63,150 bases of DNA from a virus (IMGVR_UViG_3300045974_000110:1-63150); one strand, 5' to 3'; shown: positions 43,401 through 63,150, counted from the first letter of the stretch. A program made the numbers and translations. The notes: generated by a model not told the origin, from the sequence alone.

Positions 43401-43846
43401 AGGTCGAGTCCATTCGCTCGGGAGTAGAGCCTGTGGAGCTTGTCCTCGAGTAGGGCAAGCGCCTCGCCTTGGTGATCGGTGAGGTGTTCGATTGCTCCGA
43501 GTGCCGTGACGGCCACGTCGAGGAGCTCTTGAATCACCTTGTCCATGTCGTTCGTGACACCCTTGCGAGGGTTCTGACCCGTCGCTCCGATGTAGGCAGA
43601 GATGACCTCGCCGGCCTCTTCGGCTACCTTGGCGAGACGTCCCCAGGTCACCGCCTCGGGGTCACGGTGCTCGTTGCCCTTGTCGATCCACTTCGAGAGC
43701 CAGACAAGGTCAGCCTCGGGTCCGAGGATCGGAAGGTAGATCCCAGCACACTGGTTGAGGTTGTCCTCGCCTGTAGAGCGAAGGTCTCGCCACATGTGGC
43801 CTCGGTGAGGAGTGGTCTGCAGGCAGTCGAGTTGCTTGGCGCTCAC
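43397..43846 (-). CDS. mazG: MazG-like NTP pyrophosphohydrolase
   Basis: KVAEEAGEV..GQNPRKG..ELLDVAVTA. Confidence 0.85.
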   Translation of the reverse strand: MSAKQLDCLQTTPHRGHMWRDLRSTGEDNLNQCAGIYLPILGPEADLVWLSKWIDKGNEHRDPEAVTWGRLAKVAEEAGEVISAYIGATGQNPRKGVTNDMDKVIQELLDVAVTALGAIEHLTDHQGEALALLEDKLHRLYSRANGLDL

Positions 43847-44679
43847 GTCAGATCAACACCCTTCCGCATCTTGTCGATCCCGACGCCGGTGTAGACCTGT
43901 GTAGTCTCGACGCTGCTGTGGCCGAGCAGCTCCTGGACGAGACGAATATCCATCGTCTTGTCGTAGACAGCCGTGGCGAACGTGGCTCGCAGATCGTGGC
44001 TGCTGATGTGGCGCTTGAGGCGTGCCTTCACACCCAGCCGGGTGATCGTACGCCGTGCGCGTCGGTCTGTCATCCCTACGACCGGCGTACCGGGGCCAGC
44101 GATGAAGGCGCGTGCGACAGGTGCGCTCAGTGCGGTCCACGCTTCGACGGACACCGGGACGATGCGGGACTTGTCACCCTTGCCACGGATCGTGAGGGTC
44201 ATCTCGTTCATGTTGATGTCCTCCCGAGTCACGGCGAGTGCCTCGGCGATACGGCACCCACAGAAACCGCACAGGGCGATGAGAGCGGCTTCCTCCTGGG
44301 TCTTGCTGTAGAGGATCAGCTTCCGCACACCGGCGATGCCTTCGGGCAGCGGGTGTGGCATGGACTTGGCGGGTGTCGGTGTCGAGTACTCCTCGAGCGT
44401 CGAACCCCAGCCTGCCCACTTTGCGAACGTACGGAGCGTGGTGAGTCGCCGGCCTGTGGTCTTGGGTGCGACGACGCGCCTGTTGGTCTGGAGCCAGTCC
44501 AGCGCTGCGTCCTCGAAGTCATCCTGGTCGAGGCCGGTCGGGTGGAGCAGGAGGAACTGTGCGAGATCGGAACGGTAGGCACGAGTCGTGTGCTCACTGC
44601 GCCCCCGCTGGTCGAGGTAGACGACGAACTTGTCTGCGCTTGCTGCGTCGAGTCGATCGGCGCGCTGTTCGTTTGCCAT
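43843..44679 (-). CDS. Tyrosine recombinase (XerC/D-like)
   Basis: T.RAY.SDL, GCRIAE, RGKGDK.R, HDLR, LLGH, TTQVY. Confidence 0.92.
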   Translation of the reverse strand: MANEQRADRLDAASADKFVVYLDQRGRSEHTTRAYRSDLAQFLLLHPTGLDQDDFEDAALDWLQTNRRVVAPKTTGRRLTTLRTFAKWAGWGSTLEEYSTPTPAKSMPHPLPEGIAGVRKLILYSKTQEEAALIALCGFCGCRIAEALAVTREDINMNEMTLTIRGKGDKSRIVPVSVEAWTALSAPVARAFIAGPGTPVVGMTDRRARRTITRLGVKARLKRHISSHDLRATFATAVYDKTMDIRLVQELLGHSSVETTQVYTGVGIDKMRKGVDLT

Positions 44680-44705
44680 GTCTTTCCTTTCGATCGGTGT
44701 CGAAG

Positions 44706-44978
44706 TCAGTCTTTCATTCGCCATTTGGCTTCGAGATCTTCTTCCAGTGTGGCCTTGCGCGTTGGCGCAGTCCAATCGTAGAAGTAGTGCTCGTCCTTCA
44801 GGAGACAGTCGCGGCACAGCCAAGCGACGTTGGTCGCCTTCTTTGCGCTGGAACCTTCTCCCATCGGTCGGAAGTGGATCTGCTTGACTGTCAACAGATC
44901 GCGCGCTTCCATGTCTGATCCCGCACCGGGCTTCTCACCACAGCGCGTGCAGCGGTAGTCGTACTTGCGACCCTTCAT
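44706..44978 (-). CDS. Zinc-ribbon hypothetical protein
   Basis: CTRC..LCRDC. Confidence 0.6.
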   Translation of the reverse strand: MKGRKYDYRCTRCGEKPGAGSDMEARDLLTVKQIHFRPMGEGSSAKKATNVAWLCRDCLLKDEHYFYDWTAPTRKATLEEDLEAKWRMKD

Positions 44979-48098: not shown

Positions 48099-48380
48099 TT
48101 ACCAGTAGTGCTTGTCGTGCAGCTCGCAAGGCCGGGGACGTAGACAAATGTATCTCTCGCCTCGAGACGAGATGCCTACGAAGAAGGTACACTTCCCCTC
48201 CTTCCAGCTCTCGTCCTCTTCCTCTGTGAGATCGTCTACGTCTGGAACGGGCAGCGGTGGGCCACCCGCCCCAGCACAGTAGGTGATCTCCCAGGTGATC
48301 TTCTCGTAGCCGTGGAGTCGGAGCATCCCATCCTTGGTCAGGGAGAGCTCCTTTCCACACTCGGGACACATACCTGTCAT
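48099..48380 (-). CDS. Cys-rich hypothetical protein
   Basis: CPEC..H..C; coupled to vWA gene. Confidence 0.6.
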   Translation of the reverse strand: MTGMCPECGKELSLTKDGMLRLHGYEKITWEITYCAGAGGPPLPVPDVDDLTEEEDESWKEGKCTFFVGISSRGERYICLRPRPCELHDKHYW

Positions 48381-51160
48381 GCGAGCTTCTTCTCCAGGTG
48401 ATGGATGACCTTGATGAGGTCACCGTCGTCGTGGACTTCGACGGTGTCGAGTCCGTGCTCACGAGGCGAGTCGGTACGGATACCGACACCGAGGAGTGCG
48501 TAACCCTTTTGCGCGCAGGTACGGATCTCGCGCTGGAGGATCTCGAGCTCCTCGTCGTGGTTCTCGGCAGGCATCTTGCCGTCCGAGTAGTAGAGGATGA
48601 TCTTGTCGGTTGCCTTGGACTCGTCGGCACGCTTGCGGAGGAACTCCAAGGCGTGACCGTCGAGGTTGGCAGACGCACTGCCCAGCTCCTGGAGACGCTG
48701 CTGCGTGTGCTTGTCCCACGCCTCGCCGGCCTCACGGATCGGGTAGATCTCCAGCATGATGCCTGACTCGCGGCCAGACAGGACGTTGTCGTACTGGCCG
48801 GAGTGAGCGTAGATGCTGAACGGGATACCGAGTCGATCGAGCATGTTGGCCTGCGCCATCACGGCTCGCTTCTCCAGCTCGATGTTGGTTCCGACTGTGG
48901 AGCCCGACACGTCGATGCCGATCACGACGAAGTAGTTGCGCTTGCCCGGCAGGGTCTTCTTCTTGAAGAGCCGCTCGTCACCGTGGAATGCGCGCCTGCC
49001 CAACACCTTGGCGTTGACCTTGCCGGACTTCAGGTTGCGCTGGTTCTTGCCGCGAGCGTTGTCCTCTAGGACGACTCGCAGCTTCCCAAGCGCAGGCCCG
49101 ATGACGGACTCGGGGATATTGAGGTCGTGTGCCTTGACGTAGTCGTTCCAGGAGCTGGTGGACGACCAGGCTTCGTTGCCATCGTAGTCTCCGTAGCCAG
49201 CCAACGGCTCGGGAACACCGAACTTGTGCCACCGTACGCCGTTGACAAAGCGCGACTCGGTCTCGAAGTAGATCGACTGGTTGATCGCTACTCCGACGGC
49301 CTTCTCGTAGTCGCCCTCCTGAACGGAAGATGGCGGGTCAGCGTGGTCGCCGAACTGCTTGAGGGCTTCCTGTGCTTCCTCGGGCGTCCCGTAGTCAAGT
49401 GCCGACTTCCCATCGTTGTTGGGGTTGTCGAGCAGCGTGACGCCTGTAGCGTCATCCTCGTCATCGGGGTCGCCCAAGTCACCGTGGGAAGTACCCTCGC
49501 CGTCGCCCTCGTCGTCGTTGACAGGGTCGTCAGGGTGCTCCGGAACCGGGGGTGACGCACCCTCTGTAGGCTCCGCGCCCGGTGTGTCGCCGGAGGGGTC
49601 GCTGTACGCCCCATCCCCGCCCTGTCCCCCCGCTGTGGGGTCGCTATCGGCGTCATCCCCGAACTCCTGGCGCTCGATGTCGCCTGTGCCGGAACCAGAT
49701 TCGTCCGACCCGTCCGAGGAGTAGTCGTCGTCGCTTACATCGCCCTCAGAATCGTCTTCTGCATCTGTCGGGCTACCTGCTTCGCCGCCAGTGGACTCAG
49801 ATTCCTCACCGGAGTCATCGCCAGACGGGCCTGCCTCGCCTTCTTCCGACGGCTCGTCAGACGGATCTCCATCTTCTGACTCGTCGTCAGCTGATTGCTC
49901 GGATGGAACAGCATCGCCATCGCCCGACTCATCGGAAGCGTCATCTCCGCTGCCGCCCTCGTCCATGCTGTCGTCAGCAGCGTCAGATCCGGGGTCTTCG
50001 GATTCTCCTGACTCTCCGTCGTCATCGGACTCTCCGTCGTCTCCGGCGGTTGCGTCGTCAGGCTCATCTTCAGATCCCTCACCTGTATCGGGGGAAGGCT
50101 CCCAATCCTCAGAATCGCTATCTCCGCCCTCCTCAGACTCTCCGGCATCGGGCTCGTCGGTGTCGAGCTCATCTGGCTCGGACTCGTCGGAATCTCCTTG
50201 TTCATCTGTCTCCTCGGGCTCTTCTTCGGGCTCAGGCTCGGGTTCTGTGTAGTCCACGTCAGAGGGGTCGATCATAAACCCCATCTCGCGGAGGCGCACA
50301 AGCACGGGGATGCTCAGCGTGTAGACACCCTTGGCCGAACGCACCTGGCTCATCCCCTTGAGGATGCGAGTGAGCTCGGGATCTTCGAGTGCCTCGATGA
50401 TCTGCGGGGCGAACCAAGTCTCGTAGTCGTAGCCCGAGATCTTGGCGAAGATACCCACACAGATCTGTGCGTTCAGCGGCTGCTCTGGCCAGCGAACTGT
50501 CTTGACGCCTCCGCGGCCATCGCTGGACTCGAAGCCGTTGGTGAAGATCTTCTCGACCAGGGCTTCGAACATGGTCTTGACGCCAGGGCGAGCCTGGAAC
50601 ATCAAGGCGTTGACACGCGAGTCCTCGAGTGCGTTGACCAGCGTCGGCAGGTACGGCGAGACCAGGCTGCTGATGTTGAGCCAGTCCCGCTTCTTGTAGT
50701 ACGGTGCCATCGCTACTCGGTGAGCAGTGCCGTGGCCCCACTCGCCGGCCTGGTCGGCTACAGTCTTCTCAATCGCACGCGCTACACTCTCGGCGCTGGG
50801 CACCTTGAAGGTGCCGTAAGCGATGTGAGCGATCTCGTGGTAGATGACTGTGAGGATGTCCTCGCGCAGCCTGCACGCATCGCAGATCATCTGGCCGTCG
50901 TCACCGCGCCGGTCGCAGAGGCGACGGTCGTGCTCGCGCTCCTCGGCCAGCTCGATGGGCGGTCGGAAGAAGATCTTCTTGCCGTCGGTGCTTCCGTTGG
51001 ACTCCTTGCTCAGGACTACCTGCACCGCGTCGTCGCCGGTGAGGGCGCGAGCGTATGCGCTGAGCATCGGGAGCATACCTCGGAACACCTTGACGGCACG
51101 CTTGGCCTTGTCGGAGGTCGTGTCGAGAGTGCCGGTGCGGGAGAACGTGTCGGTACTCAT
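48377..51160 (-). CDS. CobT-like vWA protein with metallopeptidase-like N-terminus and long acidic linker
   Basis: STDG, HEIAH, NALEDSRVN, D/E/S-rich tract, IDVSGS (MIDAS-like), YSDG. Confidence 0.88.
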   Translation of the reverse strand: MSTDTFSRTGTLDTTSDKAKRAVKVFRGMLPMLSAYARALTGDDAVQVVLSKESNGSTDGKKIFFRPPIELAEEREHDRRLCDRRGDDGQMICDACRLREDILTVIYHEIAHIAYGTFKVPSAESVARAIEKTVADQAGEWGHGTAHRVAMAPYYKKRDWLNISSLVSPYLPTLVNALEDSRVNALMFQARPGVKTMFEALVEKIFTNGFESSDGRGGVKTVRWPEQPLNAQICVGIFAKISGYDYETWFAPQIIEALEDPELTRILKGMSQVRSAKGVYTLSIPVLVRLREMGFMIDPSDVDYTEPEPEPEEEPEETDEQGDSDESEPDELDTDEPDAGESEEGGDSDSEDWEPSPDTGEGSEDEPDDATAGDDGESDDDGESGESEDPGSDAADDSMDEGGSGDDASDESGDGDAVPSEQSADDESEDGDPSDEPSEEGEAGPSGDDSGEESESTGGEAGSPTDAEDDSEGDVSDDDYSSDGSDESGSGTGDIERQEFGDDADSDPTAGGQGGDGAYSDPSGDTPGAEPTEGASPPVPEHPDDPVNDDEGDGEGTSHGDLGDPDDEDDATGVTLLDNPNNDGKSALDYGTPEEAQEALKQFGDHADPPSSVQEGDYEKAVGVAINQSIYFETESRFVNGVRWHKFGVPEPLAGYGDYDGNEAWSSTSSWNDYVKAHDLNIPESVIGPALGKLRVVLEDNARGKNQRNLKSGKVNAKVLGRRAFHGDERLFKKKTLPGKRNYFVVIGIDVSGSTVGTNIELEKRAVMAQANMLDRLGIPFSIYAHSGQYDNVLSGRESGIMLEIYPIREAGEAWDKHTQQRLQELGSASANLDGHALEFLRKRADESKATDKIILYYSDGKMPAENHDEELEILQREIRTCAQKGYALLGVGIRTDSPREHGLDTVEVHDDGDLIKVIHHLEKKLA

Positions 51161-51323
51161 ACGCCTCCCTCCTGACAGAGTGGGCAGTCGTCACAGGCGC
51201 TCGGTTGCGTCTGCATCCAGGGACCGTAGACATGGTCGATGTACCAGTCGAAGACGAACTCCGGAACTGGTGGACAGACTAGCCATACGATCTTGTGTCC
51301 AGTTAGGACGAGCCAGCGCTTCA

Positions 51324-51539
51324 TCACCAGCTCCTATCTCTCTTGGGGATCGCAGCCTGCTGGCGGCGATCAGCGTTCACGATGGAGACGTAGTGGCGCT
51401 GACAGGTGGGACGCCACTTATGGCCGTCCCAGACCTGTACAGTCGCGTGCGACCCGCAGCGCTCCTCGCCCCACACGAAGATCCCGATGGAGATCTCGCA
51501 GGTAGCGGGAAACGCCAGGTCACGAGTCTGAACGGACAT
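51324..51539 (-). CDS. Small hypothetical protein
   Basis: Cys pattern; overlaps neighbour. Confidence 0.45.
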   Translation of the reverse strand: MSVQTRDLAFPATCEISIGIFVWGEERCGSHATVQVWDGHKWRPTCQRHYVSIVNADRRQQAAIPKRDRSW

Positions 51540-51861
51540 CGGCGATCACCTTCGGCAGTATAGCCTTGCGGATCTTCTTGAAGTGCTCGAGCTCCTCGTC
51601 GGTCACACCGTACAGGTGCTGGGGCTGAGTGCGCGAACCCGACTGGTAGATGCGCTCGCCCATCATCGTCACGGCAGGGCCGTTGGACAGGTGGAACGTG
51701 AGGCGGGTGATCTCGTAGGCGTACGTCTGTCCGCTCTGCTGCACCTCGTAGTGGAACCACCGCGACTTGGGGTCAAGGTGGACGACGACGGTCGTGCTGA
51801 CGAGCATCTCGATTGGACGGTCAGGAATGTCTCGAGACCACTGCTTGTCCTTGGGGTTCAT
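51520..51861 (-). CDS. Hypothetical protein
   Basis: GGAGG RBS; ATGA coupling. Confidence 0.6.
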   Translation of the reverse strand: MNPKDKQWSRDIPDRPIEMLVSTTVVVHLDPKSRWFHYEVQQSGQTYAYEITRLTFHLSNGPAVTMMGERIYQSGSRTQPQHLYGVTDEELEHFKKIRKAILPKVIADVRSDS

Positions 51862-52049
51862 GCTTCCTCCTTCTCCCATCGACCATCGACTGTGAGTTTC
51901 TGAAGTATCGCTTCCGTTCCATCGGCGCGGAGCCACTTCAGAACACGAATTGCCTTGGGCCTGTTATTGCGAATGACACCAGGCGTACAAACGATCTGAG
52001 TCTTACCATCTGCCCTAGAGGTGAAGACGACTCGATGTGTGGTACTCAT
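51858..52049 (-). CDS. Hypothetical protein
   Basis: Coupled ORF. Confidence 0.5.
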   Translation of the reverse strand: MSTTHRVVFTSRADGKTQIVCTPGVIRNNRPKAIRVLKWLRADGTEAILQKLTVDGRWEKEEA

Positions 52050-52053
52050 CGGA

Positions 52054-53595
52054 TCACCTCTCCATGTGCGAGCGGACGACGTTGAGCATGACTTCCTGGG
52101 CCTCGGGCTCCAGGTAGTCAGCCGCGGCCAGACGGTAGGCCTGAAGGGGCTCGAACCAGCGGAGGGCTCGGGTCACCTTGATCTGAGGCCTGATGCCCCA
52201 GGTGATCGGCAGCGTCTGCTGCTTGGACAGGGTCCGAAGCTCTGCCGAGATCCTCATGACCATATCGAGCTGCTTGCGCTCGGGTGTGAAACCGTCGATC
52301 TCGCAGCGACGCAAGATGATGTCGCGCTCGATCGGCTCGGGCGGCAGGTTCATGAAGATGTGCGACAGACGCGACCCGTCTGCGTCACCGATCTGATCGG
52401 CCCCGACGTTGCGCGAGTCCCACGAGGGGTTCATCGCCATGCCGAGGTAAGCGTCAGGGTGACGGGACAGGCGCTCGCCCTTGTTCTGGTCGAGGACCAG
52501 CTGCTTGCTGTTGTCCGTGAGTGGACGGAAGAACTGCCACACGTCAGGCGGTCCCACGTTCGGCTCGTCGAGGCAGATCACGCTGGGCTTCTGCCACGCC
52601 TGGGGGACGCGACCGTACTCGAAGTACGTTCCCGTCTCCTGGCTGAAGTGGAACTTGCCGGCGAGGTCGTCGAGCTCGGAAGATGCCGTGATGCTGATGC
52701 GCTCGAACGGAAGCTGCATGAGCCACGCGATGTGGCGGAACAGCTCCGTCTTGCCGACACCGGCCTCGCCCCACAGCGCGGGAGTCTCGTCGAGTGCCAC
52801 CCACAGGACGGCGACCTTGTAGACGGCTGCGTTGTGATCGACGTAGAGCTCGGGGTGTTCGTCGTCTCCGGCCTGCGGAACCTTGAGGTACTCCTCGGGG
52901 GAAAAGTAGGACTCTCCATAGATCGGAAGGTCGACGTGCCTGGTGGGGTTCTCGGGGTCGACGATGCGACGCCAAGCCCTGATGCCACCAGCGGCATCCT
53001 TCTCCGTGACGGGAGCGTCAGTCTCGTACTCCCTTGGGTTCGACTCGTACGCGATCTTCCATGCGTCGATGGGTGTGGAAGTCGGGATGTCTCCGACGTT
53101 GTACTCGGGCAGTACGAACATGCCGAGGGTCTCGTCGCGAGGAGTACCGAACACACGGAACTCGCACCCTGTCGCCTCGCGGACGGCTTGGGTGCTGATG
53201 ATGAGCTTGCCCTTGGCGGCGCACAGCCCAGCGGTCCACCCGAGCTCTTCGCCAACAGCTTCCTCGCGGACGTAGTTGGCACAAGACATGCAGGTGCTGA
53301 CCTTGTCATCGGGAACTGCCACGTCGCGAGCGTCCATGTCTGGAAGCATAACTTCCATCTTCCAGGCCGTTGCCGGACTTGGGGGACTGAACGGGGCAGG
53401 CTGACCGTGTGACACACACGAGTTGGCGATCAGCTCCATCGAACGGAACTGCAACTGTGTGGGCTGGTCTGGCCTAGAGAGCGGCTTGCCGAAGCGCTTA
53501 CACATCGGCGAACCGACGCTGCGCTTGAAGACTGATGCGGTCTCTCCCTCGGGAACAAACGAGGGACATCCCGAACAGCTTTTCATGACTGCCAT
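52054..53595 (-). CDS. MoxR/CobS/CbbQ-type AAA+ ATPase with Cys-rich N-terminus
   Basis: GEAGVGKT, CLDEPN, AMNP, DADGSR, WGIR. Confidence 0.9.
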   Translation of the reverse strand: MAVMKSCSGCPSFVPEGETASVFKRSVGSPMCKRFGKPLSRPDQPTQLQFRSMELIANSCVSHGQPAPFSPPSPATAWKMEVMLPDMDARDVAVPDDKVSTCMSCANYVREEAVGEELGWTAGLCAAKGKLIISTQAVREATGCEFRVFGTPRDETLGMFVLPEYNVGDIPTSTPIDAWKIAYESNPREYETDAPVTEKDAAGGIRAWRRIVDPENPTRHVDLPIYGESYFSPEEYLKVPQAGDDEHPELYVDHNAAVYKVAVLWVALDETPALWGEAGVGKTELFRHIAWLMQLPFERISITASSELDDLAGKFHFSQETGTYFEYGRVPQAWQKPSVICLDEPNVGPPDVWQFFRPLTDNSKQLVLDQNKGERLSRHPDAYLGMAMNPSWDSRNVGADQIGDADGSRLSHIFMNLPPEPIERDIILRRCEIDGFTPERKQLDMVMRISAELRTLSKQQTLPITWGIRPQIKVTRALRWFEPLQAYRLAAADYLEPEAQEVMLNVVRSHMER

Positions 53596-60365: not shown

Positions 60366-60704
60366 TCAGTGCCAGACCTTTCGGTACAGGTCGAACGTCT
60401 TCACGCCGTCGATCTTGAGCGGCATGTCCGGAAGCATCTTGTACCTTCCGTCGGTCTTCGTCCACATCCAGGCCTCACTGTAGACGGTCTGGATGCGATC
60501 GGTGTAGCGGGTCTCACTGAACTTCACACGCCCGACCACCAGAACGATCTTCGCGTCACTGATGACGCATCCGGTGATCTCCTCGTACTGTCCGAGGTGG
60601 AATCGCTTGCCCGTCAGCGCCTTGATCAGAGCCAGCTGCTGGTACGGGGTCAGGCCGTCAGCCGTCAGCTCGGTGCTGACGACCTCGTACGGCTTTTCGG
60701 TCAT
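60366..60704 (-). CDS. Hypothetical protein
   Basis: GGGAGG RBS. Confidence 0.65.
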   Translation of the reverse strand: MTEKPYEVVSTELTADGLTPYQQLALIKALTGKRFHLGQYEEITGCVISDAKIVLVVGRVKFSETRYTDRIQTVYSEAWMWTKTDGRYKMLPDMPLKIDGVKTFDLYRKVWH

Positions 60705-60803
60705 GATGTGCCTCCCCTTTCAGGGGTCAGGGGGGTATCCCCAACTTTCGGACTTTCCTGACTTTGTCAACTATGGCCCACTAAGGGCTGAACAGTCAAC
60801 AAG

Positions 60804-60876
60804 TGCTCGCCGGGGGAGTCGAACCCCCAGACGCGCGCCCAGAGCGATCAGGCGCGCGTCAGCCAGGTGGGCAAGC
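60804..60876 (-). ncRNA. 73-nt tRNA-like RNA lacking a D-stem
   Basis: 7-bp acceptor GCUUGCC/GGCGAGC plus discriminator A; T-arm GGGGG-UUCGACU-CCCCC; 10-bp central stem; 9-nt unpaired linker containing UGG. Confidence 0.65.
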
Positions 60877-60888
60877 GCCACCAGGCCC

Positions 60889-60922
60889 CCTGACCGCCAT
60901 CCGGTGAAAGATGGCGGTCAGG
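60889..60922 (-). terminator. Stem-loop after first early gene
   Basis: CCTGACCGCCATC...GATGGCGGTCAGG. Confidence 0.65.
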
Positions 60923-60949
60923 TGACCTAGGGGTGAACGGAAGGTGTCA

Positions 60950-61624
60950 CTAGGCGATCTTGACCGCGCCCTGGTTCGTACGGTCGGCATTCATGCGGGG
61001 CTCGACACCGGTGAGGGTGCAGGCCGATCCGTCACGCGGGAACAGCCGCGCGGCGATTGCGCCATCCGACGGTGCGCCTGCGGCACGGGCGATTTCGCCG
61101 CAGGTCAGGAAGGTGCCGGGCTCGACGTCGACGAAGGCGTCGTCGACGTAGGCCTGGACCGATCCGCGCGGAGCCTTGGTGCCGGTTCCGCCGACGATCT
61201 TGGACAGGCGTTCGATTGTGGCGGTGTCGCTCTCCGTGACCGTGTAGTTACGGATCGCAGCCGCGTCGAAGTCGAACGTCTGTGCGATTCGCCCGGCGGC
61301 GACGGTGAGGAGGGCTGCCGTCCGGATTGCGGCGACCTTGGGGTCGACCTGCGGACGGACACTCACCGTGACGAGGGCCTCACGGATCGTCATCCAGGCA
61401 CGGGCTGCGGCGATGTCCATGTCGCGCACGGCCTGGTCACGCTGCGTTTCCGTCCATGTGCGGGCAGTGGCCTTGTCACCCTGGGTGAGCGAGGCGTAGC
61501 TGTCGGTCACGGTGGCCAGGTCACTCTCGGTGACGATTCCGGTCCCCATGTCACGCAGGGTGAAGACGGCCTGCGCGGCGGTGGTGAACGACAGGTTAAC
61601 GCTGGTGGTGATTGTGGTGGACAT
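60950..61624 (-). CDS. First leftward early protein, paralogous C-terminus to 55709-56635
   Basis: GGGAGG RBS; FLT..EI..APS.GAI.ARLFP. Confidence 0.75.
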   Translation of the reverse strand: MSTTITTSVNLSFTTAAQAVFTLRDMGTGIVTESDLATVTDSYASLTQGDKATARTWTETQRDQAVRDMDIAAARAWMTIREALVTVSVRPQVDPKVAAIRTAALLTVAAGRIAQTFDFDAAAIRNYTVTESDTATIERLSKIVGGTGTKAPRGSVQAYVDDAFVDVEPGTFLTCGEIARAAGAPSDGAIAARLFPRDGSACTLTGVEPRMNADRTNQGAVKIA

Positions 61625-61741
61625 TTCGTGCCTCCCGATAGGGGTCGCCGTTCGATTCTGATAATCGAACGGTCACGGCGCGTCACATTCGGCCTTTTTC
61701 AGGCTTTTCAGGCTTTTCCGACTATTGCGACTAAAGGGCGC

Positions 61742-62376
61742 AAATCGGACATTTCGGCCTGGAATGTGACTCACCGTAATCGGCACGGTCACACCTAGTG
61801 AGGGCAAATCGAACACGTAATCGAACAGCCGTCCGACTTTCGGACGGATGTACGAAATGTCCGTTTTGTCCTACCTTGACCCTATTGAGTTGGAAAGTAA
61901 CGATATGTCACCGTTTGTCCCGATATGGTCTCTTCGTACCCATATGGGCCTTTCGGGCATATTGTCCCATATTGGGCGTTAAGTCCCAATATGAGGCGAT
62001 ATGTCCGTTTTAGGCGTGATGCCCGATACACCACGGTTCGCACGGGATTGTCGGTTCTGCCCCACATTCGTCACATTTGACCAGAATGGGCCAAAGGCCC
62101 GGAATGGTACGAATGTACTTAATGTCCCGAATGTTCACTTTGTCCGCCTTGTCCATGATGTCCGTTTTGTCCGTTCCAGCCGATGGCCTACGGCCATCCT
62201 ATGCCCGTGTAAGCGGTTACACAAGAAAATGTGACGCGCGTCACACGAATCAGTCCGATATGTCTGAAATGTCCGTTTTGGAAATCCGCATAGCGGGCAT
62301 GTTCGATTAAGTAATCGAACGGCTTTACGATACGGTGCGTGTCGTTTGCTTTTGTTACATCGGACAAAACGGACAT
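61742..62376. repeat. Dispersed ATGTCCGTTTT repeats
   Basis: Exact copies at 61857, 62001, 62158, 62269; inverted copy 62366-62376; inverted variant 61742-61752. Confidence 0.85.
62230..62245. promoter_or_regulatory. CRP/GlxR-type palindrome
   Basis: TGTGA-CGCGCG-TCACA. Confidence 0.6.
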
Positions 62377-62430
62377 CTCGGGCACTTTTCCGCTATGCGG
62401 ATTCACATGTTCACGAACACCGCATAGCGG
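62286..62430. repeat. Three CCGCATAGCGG pseudo-palindromes
   Basis: 62286-62296, inverted 62390-62400, 62420-62430. Confidence 0.8.
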
Positions 62431-62499
62431 GCATGGTTACCGAGGTTAGTTGAAGATGAAACGATCTTGAAGTAAACGGTTACATGGGCACGTCTGTAA

Positions 62500-62851
62500 T
62501 CGAACACTCGTTCGATTAGTGCGGGCGTACGGCGCGGGATTCGTACACCAGTCCGATTGAAGCTTCAATCGTACATGTGTACGCCTACACGCCTTAATGC
62601 GACTGGTGTTCGATTAGTTGTGGATAGGGGACTCGACGACATGTCGATGTGCCGATTTGTCGACATGTTGACATGTCGGTGTGGCTCGGAGTCGAACACA
62701 TGTACTATTGAGTCCTATTGCGACTCGTGTTCGATTAGGTAGGGGGATATCGAACGTCTGTTCGATTGAAGAATCAACCGTACAGGTGTACGATTCCCGC
62801 GTGAAAGTCGAACATGTGTCCGATAACACACATTATCGAACGTGTGTACGA
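62500..62851. promoter_or_regulatory. Array of LexA/SOS-box-like palindromes (TCGAAC-N4-GTTCGA)
   Basis: Perfect at 62500 and 62750; one mismatch at 62808 and 62836; degenerate at 62541, 62569, 62598, 62692, 62719, 62778. Confidence 0.8.
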
Positions 62852-63067
62852 AAGCCATTCTCGTTGAATCGTCAACTACCCCCGGTCCGAAAATCGGACG
62901 GCCCCCCGGTGGGGGCGCGCTCTCAAGGCACAGTTTACGCGCACAACTTTTTTCAGATCTGATACCGTAAGAACGACTTGTCATCACCACATGTTTAGCC
63001 GATTAGGCTAGTCCCACCCACAGGGAAACACATCTTGTTTGATAAGTACCAGTCCTCTACCCCCGAA

Positions 63068-63119
63068 TGCTCTATATGATGGTATATCCCATATATATGC
63101 TCTATATTATGCTCTATAT
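63068..63119. repeat. AT-rich ATGCTCTATAT direct repeats (3 copies)
   Basis: Starts at about 63068, 63098, 63109 in the most AT-rich tract. Confidence 0.7.
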
Positions 63120-63150
63120 CTACTACTATCCTTGCAGGTCAGGGGCCTAT

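Follow-up and report, generated by a model that had tools for sequence, protein, structure and literature searches.

The stretch of DNA analysed here (the window) is the 63,150-base linear record of an IMG/VR virus, IMGVR_UViG_3300045974_000110, which is ~81% complete. Structural genes occupy the plus strand up to ~27 kb; the minus strand carries, from the right end leftward, the genes for replication and a set of small early genes. Within this leftward array a 246-nt gap separates the first open reading frame (ORF), which encodes 224 aa (60950..61624; phrog_6708, function unknown, with homologues P0002 and P0003 at 69–70% identity), from a gene of 112 aa with a GGGGAGG Shine–Dalgarno sequence (60366..60704). 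Both genes lie on the minus strand, as does the 73-nt element found between them at 60804..60876. From its sequence and RNAfold prediction, this element is a real, well-defined tRNA-like structure that is derived from tRNA-Leu, resembles the t-elements of plant mitochondria and is mislabelled by the program ARAGORN. An initial annotation of the window had placed it at the head of the early region, which is roughly right, as it follows the first ORF of the array. An imperfect long hairpin (60878..60933, minus strand), with 24-nt arms that are 83% complementary, an 8-nt loop and no U-tract, ends 1 nt before the element. A promoter-like TTGACT-18-CATAGT (60770..60799, minus strand) starts 4 nt past it and also lies in a predicted hairpin; this site is statistically weak, with one found against 2.0 expected in shuffles.

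The element begins with the acceptor 5′ strand GCUUGCC (60870..60876), all seven bases of which pair with 60805–60811, including a U4–G69 wobble and a U3–A70 pair. The 9-nt linker that follows, CACCUGGCU (60861..60869), contains GG and is unpaired in both the minimum free energy (MFE) and the centroid fold. At the place of the anticodon and variable arms there is a perfect 10-bp G+C hairpin (60830..60860), formed from a 5′ arm GACGCGCGCC (60860–60851), an 11-nt loop UGAUCGCUCUG (60850–60840) and a 3′ arm GGCGCGCGUC (60839–60830). A single U (60829) separates the hairpin from a canonical T-arm, GGGGG-UUCGACU-CCCCC (60812..60828), which is the sole strict T-arm in the window; the pattern GGTTCGANTCC has one match in the window's own locus (L001), and this is the same T-arm. 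The acceptor 3′ strand GGCGAGC (60811–60805) and the discriminator A73 (60804) complete the structure. The bases after A73 are CUU, and no CCA is encoded. Every segment listed in the initial annotation was read out from the minus strand at 60876–60804, and the features it described (the 7-bp acceptor with U4–G69, the canonical T-arm, the GG linker, the 10-bp arm and the missing CCA) are all present.

RNAfold returns the same three-helix fold as MFE and centroid structure, at −44.7 kcal/mol and with three additional weak pairs inside the 11-nt loop. The fold is unusually stable (z = −4.59; none of 200 shuffles is as stable), has an MFE frequency of 0.38 and is retained when the element is folded in its 271-nt intergenic context. 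A loose T-arm combined with a 7/7 acceptor, G-U pairs allowed, occurs in 27 of 300 dinucleotide-shuffled windows, and a canonical GGTTCRANTCC T-arm with a 7/7 acceptor in 3 of 2000; the window itself contains exactly one strict T-arm with a 7/7 acceptor. A chance origin was rejected because the strict combination was found in those 3 of 2000 shuffles only. A search for targets of the hairpin loop found 20 matches to its complement at up to two mismatches, where 30 were expected; the element itself is the sole exact match.

The 7-bp acceptor, the 5-bp T-stem and the GTTCRANYC loop are features of a canonical tRNA. The 3–4-bp D-stem is absent from the MFE and centroid folds, and in place of an anticodon arm with a 5-bp stem and a 7-nt loop the stable fold has the 10-bp stem and 11-nt loop. 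The Rfam tRNA model (RF00005; gathering score 29 bits) has no match, either in the whole window at gathering or in 60600–61100 at E ≤ 10; on the 501-nt stretch Rfam at E ≤ 10 gives a tRNA-Sec match of 17.1 bits (E 1.1). ARAGORN calls tRNA-Gln(CUG) at 60803–60872, in a model with an acceptor shifted by 4 nt and bearing two mismatches, a 4-bp D-stem that includes one mismatch and one G-U, and an anticodon stem with two non-pairs. This label was rejected for its shifted register, its mismatched stems, its disregard of a stabler fold and the failure of the Rfam tRNA model to match, and it is almost certainly wrong. The element is not an ordinary tRNA. The view in the initial annotation that it is tRNA-shaped yet no ordinary decoding tRNA, for which a weak canonical match or none was to be expected, agrees with the missing D-stem, the missing 5-bp/7-nt anticodon arm and the outcome of both searches; a score as an ordinary tRNA, which would have spoken against that view, was not seen.

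Other classes of RNA were also considered. The likeness to the tRNA-like domain of transfer-messenger RNA (tmRNA) proposed in the initial annotation is upheld for the architecture and fails for membership: the third pair is U3–A70 rather than G3–U70, the sole wobble is U4–G69, the long helix is closed by a loop, and neither the tmRNA mode of ARAGORN nor Rfam reports a tmRNA at the element. YrlA and Y RNAs were rejected, as no TROVE domain is matched in the window (within a record that is ~81% complete) and no such RNA is matched in Rfam. There are no tRNA-related enzymes among the 41 window proteins scanned with Pfam or the 10 scanned with PHROGs. A full-text search of the literature found no description of the element. 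Candidate viral tRNA-like RNAs are catalogued in PMC10690425, the available passages of which name neither this element nor the actinophage mini elements described below, and the supplements of which may bear on the point.

Descent of the element from tRNA-Leu

Judged by alignment, the element is shown to be a remodelled tRNA-Leu gene, a point absent from the initial annotation. Against six Mycobacteriales tRNA-Leu genes, CUGGCUGACGCG, which consists of the linker CACCUGGCU and the next bases, corresponds to the signature of the tRNA-Leu D-loop and 3′ D-stem. The linker with the start of the hairpin, CCUGGCUGACGCGCG, matches AACUGGCAGACGCGCC of tRNA-Leu, and the signature is preserved at 13 of 14 positions in this D-loop segment. 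At the other end GUCUGGGGGUUCGACUCCCCCGGCGAGCA aligns with the tRNA-Leu 3′ end, where GUCU, the T-arm, the acceptor and A73 all match; A73 and the 3′ half are nearest to tRNA-Leu genes. The D-loop signature TGGCNGACGCG is also present in the element, as far from the T-loop as in a tRNA. When the pattern TGGCNGACGCG-N20-31-GGTTCRANTCC was searched in IMG/VR, ARAGORN assigned 110 of the 118 matches listed to tRNA-Leu and three to tRNA-Ser, with five uncalled; for a T variant of the TGGCNGACGCG pattern in metagenomes, the 120 matches listed comprise 88 tRNA-Leu, 4 other tRNAs and 28 uncalled. The gap between D-loop and T-loop is 25 nt in 45 of the 118 IMG/VR matches listed, and in many phage tRNA-Leu genes of IMG/VR the long class II arm gives way to a short variable region. 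One tRNA-Leu(GAG) (L093:7034–7082) has the same T-arm as the element, and one metagenome locus matching the D-loop/T-loop pattern (L191) is an ordinary bacterial tRNA-Leu(UAG).

For 185,579 species, one genome each was scanned with a 22-mer from the 3′ half (one N allowed). Five places matched, the sole tRNA among them being the tRNA-Leu(CAA) of Rhodococcus tukisamuensis, to which the element corresponds at 21 of 22 positions at pattern level and at 28 of 30 aligned bases by eye. The remaining matches are three places in Amycolatopsis that read as coding sequence and one in Ancylobacter with no ARAGORN tRNA. When the 73 nt were compared by BLAST with 301 Mycobacteriales genomes, 17 of these had matches, the best with 88–92% identity over 26–35 nt. 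At nine loci from the genome searches, ARAGORN finds a tRNA under the match in six, in each case a tRNA-Leu, and none in three, one of which (L014) contains a tRNA-Leu(CAA)-like sequence by eye. R. tukisamuensis has two tRNA-Leu(CAA)-like copies (L013:1498–1584 and L014:~1448–1531), one with a C3–A70 mismatch and the other with an unpaired 5′ end and uncalled by ARAGORN; no integrase was found beside the first copy among the 7 ORFs scanned.

Compared with tRNA-Leu, the element lacks ~5 nt of the D-arm, namely the 5′ strand of its stem and the beginning of its loop. In the tRNA-Leu frame only two of the five anticodon-stem pairs can form, as read by eye from the alignment. The segment that precedes the T-arm now has its perfect complement in the old 3′ D-stem strand, position 26 and the anticodon-stem 5′ strand. 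In the predicted fold the element is therefore shown to be without a usable anticodon arm and would not decode, because the 3′ D-stem and anticodon-stem 5′ strands are locked in the 10-bp hairpin. Neither a 7-nt loop with a Leu anticodon (NAG/YAA) nor a long variable arm is present. In the acceptor, G3–C70 of Mycobacteriales tRNA-Leu has become U3–A70 and C4–G69 has become U4–G69, so that pairing is kept. Thus the acceptor, T-arm, A73 and GG-containing D-loop have been retained and the decoding parts lost.

Relatives and the actinophage mini elements

The distant kin of the phage, recognized through conserved proteins of 31–53% identity (an AAA_5 ATPase, a CobT/vWA protein, an SNF2 helicase, a beta-clamp and a PD-(D/E)XK nuclease), are Tsukamurella TIN2-4 and siphophages of Gordonia and Rhodococcus. 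The MoxR-type AAA_5 ATPase (513 aa) and the 927-aa CobT/vWA protein are paired at 48377–53595 on the minus strand, a pairing conserved in the related phages of Tsukamurella, Gordonia and Rhodococcus. Because the ~1.4–1.5 kb upstream of the 224-aa gene (61650–63000) is non-coding DNA rich in repeats, the leftward array begins with that gene. This non-coding region contains several TAATCGAAC...GTTCGATTA palindromes and five direct-repeat copies of the ATGTCCGTTTTG type, and by its appearance looks like an operator, iteron or origin region. The right edge of the window (63040–63150) is strikingly A+T-rich, with ATATAGAGCAT repeats; a Logan contig from a pond metagenome run reaches ~1.5 kb past this end, so that the record is cut there.

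Searches of the region by megablast and blastn, and of the 224-aa protein by tblastn, gave no match in 50,697 phage records, and an exact 25-mer of the 3′ half gave none in IMG/VR, from which the window's own record may have been left out. No relatives of the 224-aa protein were confirmed in IMG/VR, nor were any confirmed among 187 pattern matches when an alignment of P0001–P0003 was compared with JGI metagenomes. A tblastn search with 17 window proteins found nothing in the 120 metagenome loci listed for the D-loop/T-loop pattern. Contigs with window DNA occur in two metagenome runs, of which X1 is probably the source sample; among the contig pieces listed from these there is no variant, joint or loose end at 60804–60876, and in run X2 no piece listed runs across the element. 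A single-sequence model of the element (R2) matched only tRNA-Leu genes and actinophage mini elements, at 17–33 bits. In one related phage a tRNA at L003:17409–17504 (plus strand) passes RF00005 (37.5 bits) and is missed by ARAGORN; it has 41 nt in place of the 17-nt anticodon arm, an acceptor GGAGGGG/CCCCUCC and A73.

A permissive BLAST search of the element against phage records gave matches in unannotated gaps of Gordonia phages. These gaps contain unannotated mini elements of ~46 nt, on the strand of the genes and each followed by a small hairpin. The layout is a 5–6-bp acceptor, a 10–14-nt linker with GG, a 6–7-bp T-stem closed by UUCRAYU, the acceptor 3′ strand, an A and then CG. The mini elements amount to an acceptor/T-arm minihelix with a GG linker and have no anticodon or D arm. 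They are found in Cafasso (L032; for example at 612–657, 1483–1528, 2116–2161 and 2701–2748), VanLee (L033 and L039), MakoManhole (L034), ObLaDi (L035) and Trine (L036). Their stems show strong covariation: in an alignment of 13 copies from these five Gordonia phages 97.4% of cells are paired and 7 of 12 pairs are changed on both sides, values that none of 500 shuffles reaches; slid controls pair at 35–58%. A covariance model of the mini elements (R1), which scores its seeds at 53.8–71.3 bits and further copies in the five seed phages at 21.8–50.2 bits, counts 11 copies in Cafasso, 17 in VanLee, 3 in MakoManhole, 11 in ObLaDi and 3 in Trine. In the minus-strand early array of VanLee, 17 of the 19 gaps of at least 40 nt hold a mini element. 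A BLAST search with one mini copy reached 10 Gordonia, 14 Mycobacterium and 3 Streptomyces phage records.

Rfam 15 has no match to the mini elements and ARAGORN calls none of them, its sole call (tRNA-??? at L036 2457–2525) merely overlapping the third Trine copy. The Trine copies lie under an annotated coding sequence (gene 40). Within 65751–67367 of the VanLee record (L039) there are, in addition, genes for an annotated Ro-like RNA-binding protein and for a tRNA-Arg. Full-text searching found no description of these elements in the literature; other intergenic repeats in cluster DJ are mentioned in a passage of PMC9753669. Unannotated acceptor/T-arm pieces were also seen in gaps of Mycobacterium phage 40AC (L037:~1458–1528) and Arthrobacter phage VroomVroom (L038:~1472–1530). 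The 40AC piece lies between a hairpin and a TTGACA that begins 4 nt beyond it, an arrangement that repeats the order seen in the window.

The R1 model scores the window element at 31.5–31.6 bits, aligned only in an alternative register with an internal 4-bp acceptor and not with the 7-bp acceptor. Set against the traits of that model, the element has 41 nt between acceptor and T-stem, including the 31-nt hairpin, is present in one copy and is followed by CUU. It has not been filed as a member of the mini family because the match is obtained only in the 4-bp-acceptor register. The multi-copy mini-element family is probably a more rewarding lead than the window element.

A possible processing mark and its alternatives

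Among the functions listed in the initial annotation, a signal for RNase P and RNase Z is the best fit to the context. The reading put forward here, tentatively, is that the element is a t-element-like processing mark for these enzymes, an instance of 'tRNA punctuation'. The retained module (the 12-bp acceptor/T stack, the T-loop and a GG partner for the elbow) is what RNase P, RNase Z and the CCA-adding enzyme would read. According to PMC3993855, termination by mycobacterial RNA polymerase requires a U-tract. Because the upstream hairpin lacks a U-tract and the mycobacterial polymerase needs one, read-through into the element is plausible, and transcription from the first early gene probably passes the hairpin. 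The transcript of that gene would then run across the hairpin into the element. If RNase P cut at G1, the first early mRNA would be left with a 24-bp hairpin as its 3′ end, and a cut by RNase Z or another nuclease after A73 would separate the element from the downstream message. Together these cuts would release a tRNA-like RNA of ~73 nt, to which CCA could then be added. The traits in common with t-elements are a tRNA-like fold, a conserved T-arm, adjoining protein genes and a position on the transcribed strand, and the covarying mini elements between Gordonia phage early genes provide a precedent.

Several observations weigh against a processing mark. The perfect hairpin could come from one template-switch event, with no selection needed. 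The 5′ leader is helical up to position −2, which makes it a poor leader for RNase P, and if the upstream hairpin terminates transcription the element would sit in an untranscribed gap before the weak promoter-like site. The element is not a conserved feature of the wider phage group: the five nearest phages in the records searched (93–100% complete) have no match to R1 or R2, and do not share the small early genes that surround it either. It is present as a single copy in the window, as against the multi-copy Gordonia arrays. No RNA run with window DNA is listed.

Nearly as likely as a processing mark, and itself a possibility of appreciable though lesser weight, is a phage-borne tRNA-Leu gene that was recently disabled and survives as a pseudogene without a selected function. 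Its loss would have taken one or two rearrangements, a deletion of ~5 nt in the D-arm and an inverted duplication that made the hairpin. The intact acceptor and T-arm would then mean that little time has passed, and the RNA might be processed with nothing depending on the product. The D-loop signature, still tRNA-Leu at 13 of 14 positions, and the 3′ end, near-identical to tRNA-Leu genes, are in keeping with such a history. No similarity is left in the middle, which points to replacement rather than gradual decay, and the element is a single copy that is absent from the five related phages. Tool-disputed tRNA remnants also occur in other actinophages, such as the acceptor/T-arm piece in the 40AC gap. 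What speaks against this explanation, though weakly, is that all 22 base pairs of the three helices are intact, that the acceptor changes relative to Mycobacteriales tRNA-Leu keep pairing, and that the structure is exceptionally well determined (z −4.59, with an MFE frequency of 0.38).

The other explanations are each less probable. A tRNA mimic that acts in trans, in which an excised, CCA-tailed RNA of ~73 nt would engage a tRNA-binding protein, is unlikely. It might serve as a decoy against a defence or toxin that cleaves or modifies tRNA, or as a mimic that can be leucylated, since A73 and the D-loop GG are kept; bacterial leucyl-tRNA synthetase is not known to read the anticodon. The fold is compatible with an L-shape, the 12-bp acceptor/T stack being joined by a second helix of 10–12 bp that approximates the anticodon-plus-D stack, with a GG able to dock on the T-loop, and an RNA placed right after the first early gene would be made early. 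Mimics of tRNA exist in bacteria and phages, YrlA being described in passages of PMC4201824. However, there is no anticodon loop for anticodon nucleases to act on, no partner was found (neither a TROVE/Ro domain nor a tRNA-related enzyme among the 41 window proteins scanned with Pfam), and the element is not conserved in related phages. Less likely again is that a class II tRNA-Leu has turned into a D-arm-less, three-helix, L-shaped RNA that would be matured, CCA-tailed and possibly leucylated, and would serve as an early trans decoy or an unorthodox decoder. It is very improbable that the element is an attP core or remnant copying the 3′ end of a host tRNA-Leu. The window does encode a tyrosine recombinase (43843–44823, minus strand; Phage_integrase and SAM-like N domains by Pfam) among the replication genes, the element is the sole tRNA-like sequence in the window, and its 3′ 22 nt differ from those of Rhodococcus tRNA-Leu(CAA) only at the N position of the pattern. 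Yet an att core needs neither the 5′ acceptor strand nor the D-loop, both of which are present, and the recombinase is 16 kb away and syntenic in the relatives L002 and L003 (45–51% identity), both of which are without the element. No joint to other DNA was seen at the element among the pieces listed from the two metagenome runs, no attP for the tyrosine recombinase was identified and no serine integrase was found in the window. Neither the scan of 185,579 species nor the 301 Mycobacteriales genomes contained an identical host 3′ end, so the att remnant that the initial annotation had considered as a contrary outcome did not come to light. The least credible explanation is a working, non-canonical decoding tRNA without a D-stem. 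This would be read either as the tRNA-Gln(CUG) that ARAGORN reports or with a 7-nt loop AUCGCUC behind two closing G-U pairs, giving the anticodon CGC; in the latter U33 is in place, and the 10–12-bp helix is close to the span of the anticodon-plus-D stack. The same loop, however, has a pyrimidine (U) at position 37, there is no G3–U70 for Ala and there are no Gln identity features. The ARAGORN model requires two acceptor mismatches and more in the D and anticodon stems while disregarding a far stabler fold, and the Rfam tRNA model does not match. A small probability remains for chance and unlisted roles at the DNA level.

The meaning of the element depends on which of these explanations holds. 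If it is cut by tRNA-processing enzymes, it would be a phage example of the 'tRNA punctuation' that shapes multi-gene messages and is known from mitochondria; the mini elements of Gordonia, Mycobacterium and Streptomyces phages suggest the same. It would then also show a route of origin, in which a working tRNA-Leu gene was stripped to the part read by processing enzymes. If it is a mere relic it is ordinary, and if a trans-acting D-arm-less RNA were true it would be the first functional tRNA-type molecule without a D-arm in a bacterial system. The naming of the element as tRNA-Gln(CUG) by ARAGORN is a warning for annotation.

Comparison with known tRNA-like systems

The element has the acceptor/T-arm sequence of bacterial class II tRNA-Leu, together with A73, the D-loop CUGGC(A/U)GACGCG and the G-U-N-U junction before the T-stem, and the closest single gene found is the tRNA-Leu(CAA) of Rhodococcus tukisamuensis. 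It is 73 nt long, in contrast to 82–84 nt for these tRNAs, and lacks the 5′ D-stem strand (~5 nt) and a Leu anticodon loop; a single 10-bp hairpin replaces the anticodon and variable arms, and the Rfam tRNA model fails. Mitochondrial tRNAs that lack the D-arm, such as mammalian mitochondrial tRNA-Ser(AGY), keep a 7-nt anticodon loop and decode. They resemble the element in having no D-stem and an extended anticodon-side helix that compensates, but the element has an 11-nt loop and no credible anticodon. The parts of the element come in the same order as in the tRNA-like domain of tmRNA: the acceptor is followed by a D-loop that has GG and no stem, then by a long helix, no more than 1 nt, the T-arm, the 3′ strand of the acceptor and A. 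The element differs in having U3–A70 and not the alanine identity pair G3–U70, in its 11-nt loop, and in lacking pseudoknots, a tag reading frame and an encoded CCA. In the MALAT1 mascRNA and MEN-beta transcripts a tRNA-like fold likewise lies directly downstream of a stable 3′-terminal structure, and cutting by RNase P makes the upstream 3′ end. These are eukaryotic, and the 13.7-bit Rfam match (E 7.6) falls short of significance, so that the relationship is one of analogy only.

The ends of plant mitochondrial t-elements, which carry the GGTTCRANYCC motif, coincide with mapped mRNA ends, and excised t-element pieces bear non-encoded C and A, according to passages of Forner et al. (2007; PMC1920247). 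The element differs in belonging to a bacterial phage, where RNase P is the RNA-based bacterial enzyme, and in being known from sequence alone; the resemblance is in likely function and is not homology. Common to both is a non-canonical tRNA-like fold, a GGTTCRANYCC T-arm and a location between or beside protein genes. The actinophage mini elements have a stack split 6/6 or 5/7, a hairpin-free linker of 10–14 nt, CG after the element and 3–17 copies per genome, whereas the window element is split 7/5, contains a 31-nt hairpin and a tRNA-Leu D-loop, and is a single copy. In both, a 12-bp acceptor/T stack is combined with a canonical T-loop, an unpaired GG linker and a discriminator A, and both lie in an intergenic gap, on the strand of the flanking early genes and next to a hairpin.

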